From positions 1-64,000 of the forward strand of contig OZ223475.1 of the NCBI GenBank assembly GCA_965140785.1: a DNA stretch of 64,000 nt. Reading direction: 5' to 3'. Shown one piece after another: positions 4,853 through 14,225 of the stretch (the stretch's first letter is position 1; each line of letters starts with the position of its first letter). The position numbers were made by a program, and so were the translations under genes. The notes under the pieces were generated by a model. It worked only from the letters and a program-made list of their open reading frames with translations. It had not been told where the DNA came from and searched no databases. Source of the DNA: an uncultured Ruficoccus sp. GTDB taxonomy: Bacteria > Verrucomicrobiota > Verrucomicrobiia > Opitutales > Cerasicoccaceae.

Positions 4853-5863
4853 ATGGCCCAAGCGAAAAAACGACTCGGTCGCGGTCTCGGCAATTTGATT
4901 GCCGGCGGCGTGGCTAAAAAGGAAGCATCCGCGCCTGCCCCGGCTCCCAAAAAGTCCAAGGGCAGCAAAAAGGAGAAGAGCAGCGTCAAGCCGATCAAGC
5001 GCGCCGCCCCTAAGCCGGCCCCGAAACCGGTTGAGGAGGTGGCCGCCACTCCGCCGCCGCCGGTGCCGGGCGGCCAGTACCGCGAGATCGATGTCGCCGC
5101 CATCGAGCCCAGCCCCTACCAGCCCCGGCGCAGCATGAATGCCGAGCCGGTCAAGGAACTGGCCGAGAGCATCCGCTCCGAGGGGCTGCTCCAGCCCATC
5201 GTCGTGCGCGTGCGCGGGGAAAAATTTGAACTGATCGCGGGGGAACGCCGTTGGCGCGCTCACCTGCACCTGGGGCTGAAAAAAATAGCCGCCCGCATCA
5301 TGGAGGCTTCGGACAGCTCCTCGGCGGTCATTTCGCTGATCGAGAATGTCCAGCGCGAGGGCTTGAACGCGATTGAAGAGGCGCTCGCCTACGCCAGCCT
5401 GATGGGCGACTTCGACCTGACCCAGGAGGCCGTGGCCGAGCGGGTGGGGAAGGGCCGCGCCACCATCGCCAACGCCCTGCGCCTGCTCCAGCTCGACCGC
5501 GAGATCCAGGGCTACGTGGCCAAGGGCATGCTCTCGGCCGGGCACGCCAAGGTCCTGCTCGGGCTCGAAGACCCCGCCCAGCGCCTCCTGCTGGCCCGCC
5601 GAATTATCGAGAGCGGCATGAGCGTGCGCGAGGCCGAGCGCCATGTGCAGCGTCTCAAGAGTGACTCCGGGAAAACACATCTTTCGCACCGGAACACCTC
5701 TGAGGCGGCGGATACCGTCGTGCGCGACCTGGAGAAACAGATCGCCACCCGCCTCAACACCAAGGTCCACCTCAAGCACACCCCGAAAAAGGGTCGCCTC
5801 ATTATCGAGTACTACGGGAACGAGGATTTGCAGCGGATTCTGGAAAAAACCGGCTTGCAGTAG
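4853..5863 (+). CDS. parB: ParB/Spo0J chromosome partitioning protein
   Basis: LGRGLGNLI N-terminal peptide, PYQPR, GLLQPIVV, IAGERRWRA, LIENVQREGL, HTH 'TQEAVAERVGKGRATIANALRLL'. Confidence 0.95.
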   Translation: MAQAKKRLGRGLGNLIAGGVAKKEASAPAPAPKKSKGSKKEKSSVKPIKRAAPKPAPKPVEEVAATPPPPVPGGQYREIDVAAIEPSPYQPRRSMNAEPVKELAESIRSEGLLQPIVVRVRGEKFELIAGERRWRAHLHLGLKKIAARIMEASDSSSAVISLIENVQREGLNAIEEALAYASLMGDFDLTQEAVAERVGKGRATIANALRLLQLDREIQGYVAKGMLSAGHAKVLLGLEDPAQRLLLARRIIESGMSVREAERHVQRLKSDSGKTHLSHRNTSEAADTVVRDLEKQIATRLNTKVHLKHTPKKGRLIIEYYGNEDLQRILEKTGLQ

Positions 5864-9854: not shown

Positions 9855-11087
9855 ATGAGCGAAAAAATCACCATCGATAACGGCAATCTCATCGTGCCGG
9901 ACAATCCCGTCATCCCCTTCATCGAAGGCGACGGCACGGGGCCGGACATCTGGAACGCTTCGGTGCGCGTCTTTGACGCCGCCGTCGAAAAAGCCTACGG
10001 CGGCTCTCGCAAGATCGAGTGGCTGGAGGTCATGGCCGGGGAGAAATCTTTCAACCAAACCGGTGACTGGCTGCCGCAAGCCACCCTCGACGCCTTCAAG
10101 GATTACCTCGTCGGCATCAAGGGTCCGCTGACCACGCCGGTCGGCGGCGGCATCCGCTCGCTTAACGTGGCGCTGCGCCAGATCCTCGACCTGTACGTGT
10201 GCCTGCGTCCGGTCCGCTGGTTCGAGGGCGTGCCCAGCCCGGTCAAGCGCCCGGAACTGACCGACATGGTCATCTTCCGCGAAAACTCTGAGGACATTTA
10301 CGCCGGGATCGAGTTCGAGAACGGCACCGAGGAGTGCGCCAAGCTCAAGAGCATGCTCAAGGATCACTTCCCGGATCTGTTCAGCAAGGTGCGCTTCCCC
10401 GATACGGCGGGCATCGGCATCAAGCCGGTCTCGCAGGAGGGTACGTACCGTCTGGTCAGGGCCGCGATCCAGTACGCGATCGACGAGGAGCGCGACTCTG
10501 TCACGCTCGTGCACAAGGGCAACATCATGAAGTTCACCGAAGGCGCCTTCCGTGACTGGGGTTACCAGTGCGCGAAGGAAGAGTTCGGCGCGACCGAGCT
10601 CGACGGTGGCCCCTGGTGCACCTTCAAGTCCCCGAAGACGGGCAAGGAGATCATCATCAAGGACGTCATCGCCGACGCCATGCTCCAGCAGATCCTGACC
10701 CGCCCGGCCGAGTACGAAGTTCTCGCCACGCTCAACCTGAACGGCGACTACATCTCCGACGCGCTCGCGGCCTGCGTGGGCGGCATCGGCATCGCCCCCG
10801 GCGGCAACATCAACTACGACACCGGCCACGCCATCTTTGAGGCGACCCACGGCACCGCCCCCAAGTACGCGGGCAAGGACCAGGTCAACCCCGGTTCGGT
10901 CATCCTCTCGGGTGAAATGATGCTGCGCCACCTCGGCTGGACCGAAGCGGCGGACCTCATCATCAAGGGTGTCAACGGCGCCATCAGCAAGAAGACCGTG
11001 ACCTACGACTTCGAGCGTCAGATGGAAGGTGCCAAGCTGCTGAAGTGCTCCGAGTTCGGTGACGCCGTCGTCGCCAATATGGACTAA
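9855..11087 (+). CDS. icd: NADP-dependent isocitrate dehydrogenase
   Basis: [55 protein letters not shown]. Confidence 0.98.
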
Positions 11088-11113: not shown

Positions 11114-11146
11114 AAGCCAGCCGGTCGTGACCGGCTGGCTTTTTTT
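11114..11146 (+). terminator. Rho-independent terminator after icd
   Basis: aagccagccggtc-gt-gaccggctggctt followed by a T tract. Confidence 0.9.
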
Positions 11147-11332
11147 GGGGGGATTTCAATGAGCCCGAATGTTACAATTGCGGGGGGTGAGGCCGATTTC
11201 GCTTTATGTCACGCATGGGTTACGGGATAATAGCATTTCTGTCGCGGAGCCACCGGCTCCTCCCTCATTCTTAAGCCGTTTTATTCGAGACCGCATCGCT
11301 GCTTTTTTTGTCCAACCTGTGCTTCTCACCGC

Positions 11333-12871
11333 ATGAAGGCCGACACCTGTATTCTCTTCGATTCCGAGGCGGCGGAAACGGCCTGTCGGGAGGCGCTGGA
11401 GCGGTGCTTTCAGTTGGAGAGCGTGAGCGCGGGGCAGAGCCGTCATGCTTATTTCGATACATTTGACTGGCGGCTGTTCGCGGAGGGGGCCTGCCTGGAG
11501 CGGACCGATGGCGAACTGCGACTGTGCTCGCTGGCCGATGACGAGGTGCTGGCCGTGGCCGACTGGAAAGGACGCCGTCCGCCGGTTTTCGCGACAGATG
11601 TCGCCGCGAAGGAACCCCTACGCAAACCCTTGGAAAACCTGTGCGGTATCCGTGCACTCATGACGCAGGCCGAGTTAGTTGCCCATAGCCGGGAGTACCG
11701 GGTGCTCGACGCCGACGCCAAGACCGTGCTGCGCGTCAGGGTGGGCAGCTACGCCTTTCACGGCGGGGACCAGCCGTTTCTGCGCGAGTGGCGCATCCGC
11801 CCGCTCAAGGGGTACGAGGGCGAGGCCCGGCAGTTCTGCGAACTGGCCGGTAACTACGGGACGCGGCAGAAGGGCGCGGGCGTGCACCCGTTGGCCGTGG
11901 CGCTGCGGGAGCGCGGCGTCGATCCGTTCCGCTACGCGCCCAACCGCGACCTGGGATTTTCCCCGGAGTTGCCCGCCTACCTGGCCGCACGCAATGTACT
12001 TGAGCACGCGCTGGAGGTGGTCGAGGCCAACCAGCAGGGCATTCTGGACGATACGGACACGGAATTTCTGCACCACTACCGCGTCGCCCTGCGCCAGACC
12101 AAGTCCGCGCTGGGGCTGTTTCGTGAGGTGCTCCCGAAGAAGGACGCGCTCGCGCTGAAGGAAACGGTTGGTCGGCTCGCCCGCGCCAGTAACACCGTGC
12201 GCGACCTGGACGTTTTTCTGCTCAAGCGCGGGTCGATCACGGCGCGGCTGCCGCGCGCGTTCAACCCCGGGGTGGAGACCTTTTTCCGCCGCCTGAAGGC
12301 CGAGCGCCGCCGCGAGTTCAAGAAGCTGTGCGCGTTCCTGCGCTCGGAGGAACTGCCCACGGCCAAGCTCGAGTGGCGCAACTTCGCCACGCGTCTGGCC
12401 AACCCGGACTACACACCGGCGCCGGGCATCTCCGTGTACACGGTGGCCTGCGCCAACATCTCCCGCCGCTACGCGCGCATCCTCAAGCGCGGCGGCAAGC
12501 TCGGGGCCGGTTCGCCGGAGGAGCCGTTCCACGAGCTGCGCATCGATTTCAAAAAGCTGCGCTACAACCTGGAGTTCTTCCGCTCGCTTTTTCCGGGCAA
12601 GGATATCGGGTACTTCATCCGCCACCTGCGCCGGATGCAGAACCTGCTCGGGGATTTGAACGACATCAAGGTCCAGCGGGACTTCCTCACGGCGCGGCTG
12701 GCCCGGCTGGATTTGAAAACCCGCGACTCGGCCAACGTCGCCGCTTCGCTCGGGGCGCTCATCGCCCGGCTGGAGGAGGGGAGCCTGCGCCTGCGCGAGG
12801 ACTTCCCCGAGGCTTTTAAGGAGCTGGCTGCCGGGCGGATGAAAACCATTGCCGAGCGCCTCTTCCGATAA
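11333..12871 (+). CDS. CYTH-like + CHAD domain protein (predicted polyphosphate-binding)
   Basis: N-terminal YFDTFDWRL; CHAD motifs 'EFLHHYRVALR', 'VRDLDVF', 'FHELRIDFKKLRYNLEFF', 'MQNLLGDLND'. Confidence 0.9.
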   Translation: MKADTCILFDSEAAETACREALERCFQLESVSAGQSRHAYFDTFDWRLFAEGACLERTDGELRLCSLADDEVLAVADWKGRRPPVFATDVAAKEPLRKPLENLCGIRALMTQAELVAHSREYRVLDADAKTVLRVRVGSYAFHGGDQPFLREWRIRPLKGYEGEARQFCELAGNYGTRQKGAGVHPLAVALRERGVDPFRYAPNRDLGFSPELPAYLAARNVLEHALEVVEANQQGILDDTDTEFLHHYRVALRQTKSALGLFREVLPKKDALALKETVGRLARASNTVRDLDVFLLKRGSITARLPRAFNPGVETFFRRLKAERRREFKKLCAFLRSEELPTAKLEWRNFATRLANPDYTPAPGISVYTVACANISRRYARILKRGGKLGAGSPEEPFHELRIDFKKLRYNLEFFRSLFPGKDIGYFIRHLRRMQNLLGDLNDIKVQRDFLTARLARLDLKTRDSANVAASLGALIARLEEGSLRLREDFPEAFKELAAGRMKTIAERLFR

Positions 12872-12874
12872 ACC

Positions 12875-13615
12875 ATGAAGATTTTGACCCTTTACCACCT
12901 CAAGGGCGGCGTGGGAAAAACCGCCGCCGCCGTCAACCTCAGCTACCTGGCCGCGGCGGAGGGTCGGCGCGTGCTCCTGTGCGATCTCGATCCGCAGGGC
13001 TCGGCCTCGTACTACTTCCGGATGCGTCCGGCGCGCAAGGTCAAGGTGGGCAAGCTGCTCAAGTCGGCCAAGTTCGCGGAGAAGCAGGTGCGCGAGTCCG
13101 ACTACGAAAATTTGTTTCTCATGCCCTCGGACCTGGCGCTGCGCCAGCTCGACCTCAAGCTCGAGTCCGGTAAGCACTCGCGCACGCGGCTCAAGCGGCT
13201 CTTCGCCGACATGGAGGATGATTACGACCTCGTGGTGGTGGACGCGCCCCCGGCGATTACCCTGCTGGCGGAGAATCTGTTCCGCGCCTCCGACCTGCTG
13301 CTGGTGCCGGTCATCCCGACCGTGCTGGCGCACCAGGCGCTGCTCAAGGTGGTGGAGTTCATGGAGCAGGAGAAGCTGGGCACGGAGCGCCTGCGGGCGT
13401 TTTTCTCCATGGCCGACCGGCGCAAGAAACTGCACCGCGAGTTCATGCGCCAGCTTGCGCAGGACCGGGAACGCTTTCTGTCCGCTGTCGTTCCCTATGC
13501 CAGCGCGGTGGAAAACATGGGCCTCGAGCGCCGTCCGCTGTCCGCCTACGACCGCAGCAGCCCTGCCGCCAAAGCCTATCGCGAGCTCTGGGCCCAGTGC
13601 CGGGCGTTTGTGTAA
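12875..13615 (+). CDS. Orphan ParA/MinD-family ATPase
   Basis: Deviant Walker A KGGVGKT, DLDPQG, Walker B 'VVDAPP', LVPVIP; starts 3 nt after the CHAD stop codon. Confidence 0.92.
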   Translation: MKILTLYHLKGGVGKTAAAVNLSYLAAAEGRRVLLCDLDPQGSASYYFRMRPARKVKVGKLLKSAKFAEKQVRESDYENLFLMPSDLALRQLDLKLESGKHSRTRLKRLFADMEDDYDLVVVDAPPAITLLAENLFRASDLLLVPVIPTVLAHQALLKVVEFMEQEKLGTERLRAFFSMADRRKKLHREFMRQLAQDRERFLSAVVPYASAVENMGLERRPLSAYDRSSPAAKAYRELWAQCRAFV

Positions 13616-13694: not shown

Positions 13695-14225
13695 TTATTG
13701 GGGGGTGCCGTGAATTCGTTCCAAGGCGGCTTGTCTTCTGAGCTCGAGCAGCGCATCCGCTTTTTGGGTGAGGAAGAAGAGCGTCATCGGCTGGCGATCG
13801 ACATCGACCGCCGTGCTTCCGAAGGTGTCGGCCAGTTGTTCGACAGAGACCTTCCGGCTGCCCATACTCTTGATCAGGCCGTGGCCGGAAAAGGTCAGCT
13901 CGATGCTAAACTCGACCAAAGATTTTCTTTTGACAGCTAGGGTGAGGAGCTTGTTGTCGTCGAGGTAGAGGGTGGTGTTGGTGGCATCGGTCAGCGGGCT
14001 GATGCTGAGCAGGACGGGCTGCCCGGTCTTGTCATCGATAAGCCCGTAACAGAGCATGGCCGTGTTCGTGTCGACGTAAGGGAGCAGGACGGCCGGGGCG
14101 ATGCGATTGGCTACGGCGGGCAGAATGGTTGCCCGCTCGAGCGGCTGGCGTGAAATTACCTCCGGGACTTCAGCCGAGGCCAGGGAGGGTAGGAGCAGCA
14201 GCAGGATCAGGCGGGACAGGCGCAT
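13695..14225 (-). CDS. Hypothetical secreted protein
   Basis: Signal peptide MRLSRLILLLLLPSLASA; directly downstream of the AI-2E gene. Confidence 0.7.
   Translation of the reverse strand: MRLSRLILLLLLPSLASAEVPEVISRQPLERATILPAVANRIAPAVLLPYVDTNTAMLCYGLIDDKTGQPVLLSISPLTDATNTTLYLDDNKLLTLAVKRKSLVEFSIELTFSGHGLIKSMGSRKVSVEQLADTFGSTAVDVDRQPMTLFFLTQKADALLELRRQAALERIHGTPQ

Follow-up and report, generated by a model that had tools for sequence, protein, structure and literature searches.

The window analysed here, a stretch of 64,000 nucleotides (nt) from an uncultured Ruficoccus sp. (positions 1 to 64,000 of contig OZ223475.1, assembly GCA_965140785.1), contains two adjacent genes that encode a CHAD-domain protein and a ParA/MinD-type ATPase (Table 1). 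These two genes are co-inherited and co-transferred as a pair. With a confidence slightly above even, we propose that they form a ParA-type system which organises polyphosphate (polyP) granules, with the CHAD protein as its adaptor.

Conservation and inheritance of the pair

The sample of relatives comprised 41 genomes (the window's own genome and genomes of its genus, family and order), and a protein of at least 41% identity was counted as a ParA orthologue. Such an orthologue is present in 12 of the 41 genomes, and in all 12 a CHAD gene (E ≤ 4e-47) lies directly upstream on the same strand. The two genes overlap by 1-4 nt in eight of the 11 relatives. In the window their junction reads TAA-acc-ATG, and both open reading frames (ORFs) as well as the 3-nt spacer between the CHAD stop and the ParA start, which the initial annotation had described as a two-gene unit, are indeed present. 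Both genes are missing from three close relatives. Of the four same-genus genomes two lack both, and four other genomes of the 41 possess weaker CHAD genes without such a ParA.

A scan across species with the ParA alignment, restricted to one genome per species, gave more than 592 matches, of which the best 80 were considered. In 68 of these 80 best loci, the gene directly upstream encodes an orthologue of the adaptor in its full length (profile positions ~5-515), four of the 68 being cut by the end of a contig; as for the remaining ones, CHAD is located downstream or convergent in two Binatia. Where the pair is complete (n = 64), the genes overlap or lie within 31 nt of each other in 60 cases, 31 of which are ATGA overlaps. 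According to the record labels, the carriers come from about ten phyla in all, namely Verrucomicrobiota, Thermodesulfobacteriota, Calditrichota, Lentisphaerota, KSB1, Chlorobiota, Actinomycetota, Pseudomonadota, Kiritimatiellota and Gemmatimonadota. Another of the 80 loci, from a metagenome-assembled genome (MAG) labelled Bacteroidota, encodes a fusion of the clade's ParA with a sucrose-6F-phosphate phosphohydrolase domain (L060:3992-5677, + strand), and all that precedes it of the CHAD gene is a C-terminal remnant.

Within the phylum of the window, 301 evenly sampled genomes were examined for both genes. The ParA clade occurs in 12 of them, nine times with CHAD directly upstream, and nine of the ten members of this CHAD clade stand beside a ParA. 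The other long, high-scoring CHAD genes without ParA that were fetched reach 115-169 bits, compared to 427 bits, and therefore belong to other subfamilies. The adjacency of CHAD and ParA is thus far beyond chance. The initial annotation had made its idea depend on the linkage recurring in other genomes, and an upstream CHAD gene does recur in the relatives (12/12), in the best loci across species (68/80) and in the carriers of the phylum (9/12).

The pair also comes and goes as one unit. Two same-genus genomes (G001 and G004) retain the gene order H1-like/aspC/icd ... AI-2E/uvrA and lack both genes of the pair, the gap between icd and the transporter being 1009 bp and 310 bp, respectively, compared to 3164 bp in the window. 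The ParA and CHAD trees moreover have odd sister pairs in common, each with a support of 97-100 in both trees: Nitrosomonas with Falsochrobactrum, Pontiella with a Gemmatimonadaceae MAG, and a Verrucomicrobiae MAG with a Geobacteraceae MAG. The matrices of pairwise identity of the two proteins are correlated with r = 0.855 and give the same nearest neighbour in 43 of 76 rows, both values being inflated by co-inheritance. Such an agreement of trees and matrices shows co-transfer, not contact between the proteins.

The CHAD protein and the ATPase

The C-terminal half of the adaptor protein is orthologous to CtCHAD of Chlorobium tepidum, which has been crystallised with polyphosphate. Pfam CHAD (PF05235) matches residues 222-452 with an E-value of 3e-53 and 181 bits (cut-off 25.6), and the same match is found in all 76 orthologues, while an NCBIfam scan of the protein gave no match. 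An AlphaFold model, calculated from an alignment with 12 orthologues, has a mean confidence (pLDDT) of 88. In this model residues 202-512 superpose on CtCHAD (6qv7) with a VIA Z-score of 34.2 and a root-mean-square deviation (rmsd) of 1.9 over 309 residues, and on its polyP complex (6qva) with a Z-score of 33.3; Foldseek gives a TM-score of 0.92 at 31% identity. The predicted fold comprises the two four-helix bundles, the basic central cavity and the conserved His/Arg residues by which CHAD is recognised. A profile of 12 orthologues finds the CtCHAD chain with an E-value of 1e-94 as against 2e-23 for the castor-bean CHAD protein, and CtCHAD is matched with 461 bits by the CHAD protein encoded next to ParA in a Chlorobiaceae genome (L084).

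H247, R250, R254 and R290 are invariant among the 76 aligned orthologues, and they align with H253, R256, R260 and R296 of CtCHAD. For CtCHAD, the accessible text of the structural study reports binding of polyP at nanomolar-to-micromolar affinity, a central cavity that contains a polyP 9-mer, a lowered affinity upon mutation of exactly these four residues, and oligomerisation on long polyP (PMC6537752). Binding of polyP by the CHAD half of the window's protein is predicted on these grounds. The construct used in that study starts at residue 208 and ends at residue 522, the last one of the protein (PMC6537752), and CtCHAD is therefore the C-terminal half of a protein of the same architecture and the same clade.

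The N-terminal domain had been annotated as CYTH, which holds for its predicted fold but not for its sequence. The model shows the eight-stranded tunnel that characterises CYTH/TTM proteins (PF01928). It superposes on AtTTM3 (3v85) with a VIA Z-score of 13.8 and an rmsd of 3.3 over 175 residues; for AtTTM3, ThTPase, a Sulfolobus TTM and class IV cyclases taken together the Z-scores are 11-14 over 150-178 residues, and the Foldseek E-values with TTM structures lie between 1e-4 and 1e-8. On the other hand, no Pfam match was obtained within residues 1-230 even at E ≤ 10, and Pfam CYTH was found in none of the 76 orthologues at E ≤ 0.01. The catalytic motif ExExK, which is said to define the CYTH/TTM family since Iyer and Aravind in 2002, turned up in a single one of the 76 when the first 60 residues were searched by regular expression. 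What is invariant in the 76 orthologues are R107, K130, G160 and Y161, next to a near-invariant DTFDW stretch that includes D42 and F44. The domain is probably a degenerate, non-catalytic tunnel; binding of a phosphate ligand may have been retained, or the domain may be the site of contact with ParA.

In one related genus (L026, L024, L027, L022 and L025) the adaptor carries an additional Lys/Arg-rich tail of 30-45 residues, the end of which coincides exactly with the start codon of ParA. At least eight Lys or Arg residues among the last 25 are found in 7 of the 76 adaptor orthologues, and the window's protein has no such tail.

The second protein of the pair matches the AAA_31/CbiA/ParA-type families of Pfam (E 6e-36). 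It stays below every cut-off in an NCBIfam scan, where ParA_partition, which has a cut-off of 180 bits, gives 96. The intact KGGVGKT motif of the initial annotation lies at residues 10-16, and the two basic patches it listed are likewise found, RPARKVKVGK at residues 51-60 and DRRKKLHR at residues 181-188. In 76 orthologues the deviant Walker A motif with its signature lysine is conserved, K10, G11, G12, G14, K15 and T16 being invariant and V13 being present in at least 90%. D37, D39 and D123, which we take to be the Walker A' and Walker B aspartates, are invariant as well.

The model of the ATPase (pLDDT 89.4) is most similar to Soj/ParA structures, with Foldseek TM-scores of 0.84-0.89 and E-values down to 1.8e-20, and these structures outrank McdA, MinD, BcsQ and FleN. 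Within the clade the basic patches have the consensus RxKPxKK at positions 49-56 and RKK at positions 183-185. R183, the first residue of the cluster R183-K184-K185, aligns with R182 of Thermus thermophilus Soj, which is described, in the part of the source available to us, as equivalent to the B. subtilis residue R189 implicated in non-specific DNA binding (PMC5393062). The presence of a basic cluster at the DNA-binding position of Soj is a hint that the ATPase may bind DNA.

As judged by sequence, the ATPase is not the chromosomal Soj. The genome possesses a Soj-type ParA of its own on another contig (L002:1435-2271, contig C2), next to RNase III, which scores 222 bits with ParA of M. xanthus (8RAY) compared to 64 bits for the CHAD-linked ATPase. 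The two share 25% identity, whereas the identity of the CHAD-linked ATPase to 64 CHAD-linked ParAs from other phyla is 39-51% (median 44%). A tree of 101 rows separates 13 Soj-like or other paralogues from 88 members of the clade with an SH-aLRT support of 97, and a quick search without one very long branch gave the same split with a support of 100. The genome's own Soj-type ParA groups with the conserved paralogues of the order. A grouping of the CHAD-linked ATPase with chromosomal Soj had been singled out in advance as a result that would speak against the idea; the protein belongs to the separate clade.

Proposed role and alternatives

The mechanism that we propose is modelled on other ParA/MinD cargo systems. 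ATP-bound ParA dimers would bind non-specifically to the nucleoid, while the CHAD protein would coat polyP granules, touch ParA and stimulate its ATP hydrolysis. The resulting zones of ParA depletion would then space, position or partition the granules. Within the adaptor, the CHAD domain would hold the polyP, and the N-terminal domain with its degenerate tunnel fold would probably have no catalytic part. The contact between ParA and the CHAD protein, the binding of DNA by this ParA, the stimulation of the ATPase and the effect on granules are inferred.

Several observations weigh against this proposal. No CHAD gene is found nearby in 9 of the 80 best loci, one of which (L097) lies at a contig edge and cannot be evaluated. 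These unlinked loci belong to a subgroup of Methylococcales, two Bacteroidota, Mariprofundus and a Puniceicoccaceae MAG. Three of the five genomes with unlinked ParA that were searched have no CHAD gene at all, although its absence is not proven since they are MAGs. The linked share is also overstated, because only the 80 best of more than 592 matches were considered. Within the phylum sample 3 of the 12 carriers are unlinked to CHAD, and one genome (G108) has an orthologue from the adaptor's CHAD clade without ParA. With 12 carriers among 301 genomes of the phylum, the module is rare and patchy and can therefore not be the general mechanism of granule positioning; Synechococcus elongatus is reported to space its granules without any ParA-family system other than McdA (PMC13556221, as far as its accessible text goes). 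A Pfam scan of the neighbouring genes in the window revealed no polyP enzyme next to the pair, and the ppk, CYTH and NUDIX genes that adjoin it in other genomes fit a metabolic role equally well. In the tree, ParAs without the linkage branch from within the linked clade at four or more points, as expected for its secondary loss.

In such a metabolic role, the pair would control polyP metabolism or the biogenesis of the granules (nucleation, size, turnover or enzyme hand-over) and not their position, and the ParA-like ATPase would switch the TTM-like/CHAD protein in an ATP-dependent manner, in the way that enzymes or assemblies are regulated by other SIMIBI ATPases. We consider this main rival unlikely. 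It draws its strength from the genes around the pair elsewhere: among 72 ORFs scanned that lie directly upstream of the adaptor gene are seven stand-alone Pfam-CYTH genes, three ppk1, one PPK2 and two NUDIX genes, next to two ROK kinases and three small RHH proteins with weak matches. Moreover, 13 of the 80 loci, but none of the 11 related ones, have ppk1 or ppk2 at a distance of no more than 4 kb, and the adaptor's TTM-like tunnel retains the invariant R107 and K130. These neighbouring genes also count for the proposed granule system, as a link between the pair and polyP. Against a metabolic role stand the lack of ExExK in 75 of the 76 orthologues, the lack of an adjacent polyP enzyme in this genome, and the ATPase itself, which is closest in sequence and fold to the nucleoid-binding Soj/ParA proteins and keeps a basic cluster at the position where Soj binds DNA.

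Six of the seven stand-alone CYTH genes belong to the window's own family and the other one to a Lentisphaerota genome. They encode proteins of about 160 amino acids, and five of the loci show an overlap of 4 nt between the CYTH gene and that of the adaptor. Some lineages thus carry a three-gene operon of CYTH, TTM-like/CHAD and ParA. The window's genome has no Pfam-CYTH gene and a single CHAD gene, the one of the pair, and it carries ppk1, two ppk2 genes and ppx, all of them elsewhere. All 12 pair-holding relatives possess ppk1 and none of the ten ppk1-less genomes has the pair, but because of the kinship of these genomes this co-occurrence is weak evidence.

A more elaborate version of the granule organiser, which we regard as rather improbable, adds a sensing function to the coupling with the nucleoid. 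The tunnel would read chain ends or short polyP and thereby gate the stimulation of ParA, and in this lineage an H1-like RHH protein encoded upstream (Table 1) would be a third, DNA-bridging component. If this were the case, the number and spacing of granules would follow the polyP state of the cell, and with the pair a ParA system would be known for the first time whose cargo is inorganic and whose adaptor is gated by a ligand.

Alternatively, ParA might use polyP itself as a polyanionic matrix on the granule surface, with the CHAD protein competing with ParA or recruiting it, so that granules are shaped or kept from coalescing independently of the nucleoid. The clade-specific basic patches RxKPxKK and RKK could bind any polyanion, and the oligomerisation of CtCHAD on long polyP, as given in the accessible text (PMC6537752), would suit such an arrangement. 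None of our observations is specific to this arrangement, and we judge it improbable. All characterised close relatives of the ATPase that we know of use DNA or membrane as their matrix, which likewise counts against polyP as the matrix.

It is very improbable that the pair is a mobile defence or selfish-element module in which the CHAD domain is incidental. The patchy distribution and the horizontal transfer of the unit would agree with such a role, and ParA-like NTPases have been surveyed in immunity systems, with CHAD unmentioned in the passages searched (bioRxiv 10.64898/2026.10.19.760177). However, PADLOC returned only P-loop-level matches for ParA (residues 4-39) and none for the CHAD protein, no integrase, nuclease or toxin domain adjoins the pair, and its neighbours are housekeeping or polyP genes.

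Finally, it is barely credible that the ATPase is the chromosomal partition ATPase for the orphan ParB encoded 7 kb upstream (4853-5863, + strand; domains ParB_N, HTH_ParB and ParB_C), given the far higher score of the genome's own Soj-type ParA with 8RAY and the absence of the CHAD-linked ATPase from two of the four same-genus genomes and 29 of the 41 relatives. This parB gene lies between the genes for a LysM protein and SecG and has no adjacent ParA gene.

Gene surroundings and comparison with known systems

The coordinates of the pair, of its domains and of further features are listed in Table 1.

Table 1. Positions of the pair, its protein domains and accompanying features; entries with a locus name refer to other loci
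Feature	Position	Strand	Remarks
CHAD protein gene	11333-12871	+	512 amino acids; CHAD domain C-terminal
N-terminal domain, residues 1-~196, triphosphate-tunnel (CYTH/TTM)-like beta-barrel without ExExK	11333..11920	+	predicted fold
CHAD domain, residues ~202-512, predicted polyphosphate-binding helical module	11936..12871	+	Pfam, fold, conserved residues
ParA/MinD-type ATPase gene	12875-13615	+	246 amino acids; distinct CHAD-linked clade
Intrinsic-terminator-like hairpin and T run closing icd	11114..11148	+	upstream edge of the two-gene unit
Possible accessory protein with RHH-like N-terminus and (A/V)KK histone-H1-like tail of ~120 amino acids, 235 amino acids	7822..8529	+	Pfam RHH_1
Stand-alone CYTH genes	L022:570-1052, L024:5406-5888, L027:5506-5988	+	Pfam CYTH
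Stand-alone CYTH genes	L023:8784-9263, L025:8629-9147, L026:8789-9292	-	Pfam CYTH
Stand-alone CYTH gene	L070:1930-2409	+	Pfam CYTH

The upstream gene icd ends at position 11087 and is followed by a hairpin (11114-11141) with a stem of 12 pairs, eight of them GC, and a 4-nt loop, which runs into TTTTTGGGGG; the intergenic stretch after this terminator measures 187 nt. The strong terminator of the initial annotation is confirmed with regard to stem and T run, but the region contains three terminator-like sites, which is no more than the mean of the shuffles (3.0), so that the call stands on the strength of the stem by itself. A consensus sigma-70 promoter was not found before position 11333, and the promoter type of the host may differ. 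In line with the annotation, no gene for ParB, MinE or a Che protein adjoins the pair according to the Pfam scan: icd lies upstream, and downstream on the opposite strand follow an ORF of 176 amino acids without Pfam match and a gene for an AI-2E transporter. This ORF (13695-14225, - strand) encodes a sequence whose N-terminus is hydrophobic and resembles a signal peptide, and has no NCBIfam match either. The corresponding space in a same-genus genome (G003) is only ~200 bp long; the ORF is either lineage-specific or not a gene.

Elsewhere in the genome, on contig C10, a third and very divergent ParA-like ATPase of 296 amino acids (L004:1495-2385) is followed by an ORF of 327 amino acids without Pfam match (L004:2400-3383). 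The two may be another orphan ParA pair.

The histone-H1-like gene listed in Table 1 lies 2.8 kb upstream of the pair. Its product matches Pfam RHH_1 (E 1.4e-6) and, weakly, a histone H1-like family of NCBIfam, and no other ORF of the genome is a pure AKK repeat. Of 11 related loci, 7 have an ORF rich in Lys and Ala upstream of the CHAD gene at a distance of 2-4.3 kb, and in a Methyloprofundus locus (L076) this distance is 280 nt. As an obligate part of the module the gene was rejected, since it is kept in same-genus genomes without the pair. By description, though not by sequence comparison, the protein resembles AlgP of Pseudomonas aeruginosa, another H1-like protein with Lys/Ala repeats, which is found at polyP granules and has an effect on how these are spaced, according to the accessible text of PMC9239181. 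The protein of the window differs from AlgP by its RHH-like N-terminus.

In the literature searched, to which subscription journals and figures (e.g. Fig 1B of PMC6537752) did not belong, the pairing of CHAD and ParA is remarked on only for Acidithiobacillus, and no proposal of a ParA system for polyP granules was found. The passages searched of the CHAD structure paper, a polyP-chromatin review, a 2024 review of ParA/MinD proteins, a study of multiple ParAs in H. neapolitanus, a 2026 survey of ParA-like NTPases and a 2026 paper on cyanobacterial polyP do not mention the pairing, nor is polyP among the ParA/MinD cargos in the reviews and surveys, as far as these were searched. According to the accessible text of PMC13556221, published in 2026, the mechanism by which E. 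coli, Caulobacter and cyanobacteria position their polyP granules is undefined. With respect to the placement and inheritance of polyP granules in bacteria, the pair is a concrete candidate for the machinery, and as a two-gene handle it is directly testable in tractable carriers.

The closest precedent is the folD-ppk-parA-CHAD cluster of Acidithiobacillus, in which ppk, parA and CHAD are conserved together within the genus (PMC10892726). This likeness is one of description. The precedent differs in being limited to a single genus, and the accessible text speaks of the ParA only as a plasmid-partition protein, without a role in positioning (PMC10892726).

As regards the adaptor, the CYTH-CHAD triphosphatase YgiF of E. 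coli (PDB 5A60) has the same succession of a TTM fold and a CHAD domain. However, the N-terminal domain of the window's protein is without Pfam CYTH or ExExK, its CHAD half belongs to another subfamily, and a superposition over both domains yields a Z-score of 15.4 with an rmsd of 17.7, the arrangement of the domains being different. Nor does a ParA adjoin the long CHAD genes that represent other subfamilies in the phylum sample, and to this extent YgiF-type genes are not linked to ParA. With CtCHAD (UniProt Q8KE09; PDB 3E0S, 6QV7 and 6QVA), in contrast, the protein shares an orthologous half and the four central polyP-binding residues. The study of CtCHAD, in its accessible text, was confined to residues 208-522 and included neither the N-terminal domain nor a downstream ParA (PMC6537752). 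Its structure with bound ligand shortens the path to biochemistry, and if our proposal is true, CHAD proteins gain a function beyond binding.

With the ParABS systems the ATPase shares its best matches in sequence and fold, the deviant Walker A motif with the signature lysine and the basic residue at the DNA-binding position of Soj. It differs from them in having no adjacent ParB, in forming a separate clade below the NCBIfam cut-offs and in its patchy occurrence. McdA/McdB is the system to which the pair is most alike in organisation: a small ParA-type ATPase is encoded beside a cargo-bound adaptor, the cargo is cytoplasmic and not DNA, and the nucleoid-based ratchet described for McdA/McdB (PMC13556221, accessible text) would be expected here, too. 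In sequence and fold McdA is more distant than Soj/ParA, as the clade profile scores 130 bits with 8RAY but 61 bits with McdA (6noo), and the Foldseek E-values are 1e-18 to 1e-20 for Soj/ParA compared to 1e-13 for McdA. The adaptor is a TTM-like/CHAD protein and as such unlike McdB, although no search specific for McdB was made, and the cargo would be polyphosphate. The pair is therefore a candidate for a ParA/MinD positioning system with a new class of adaptor and an inorganic cargo, and if the proposal is true, an inorganic polymer granule would join the cargos that ParA-type ATPases are known to serve.

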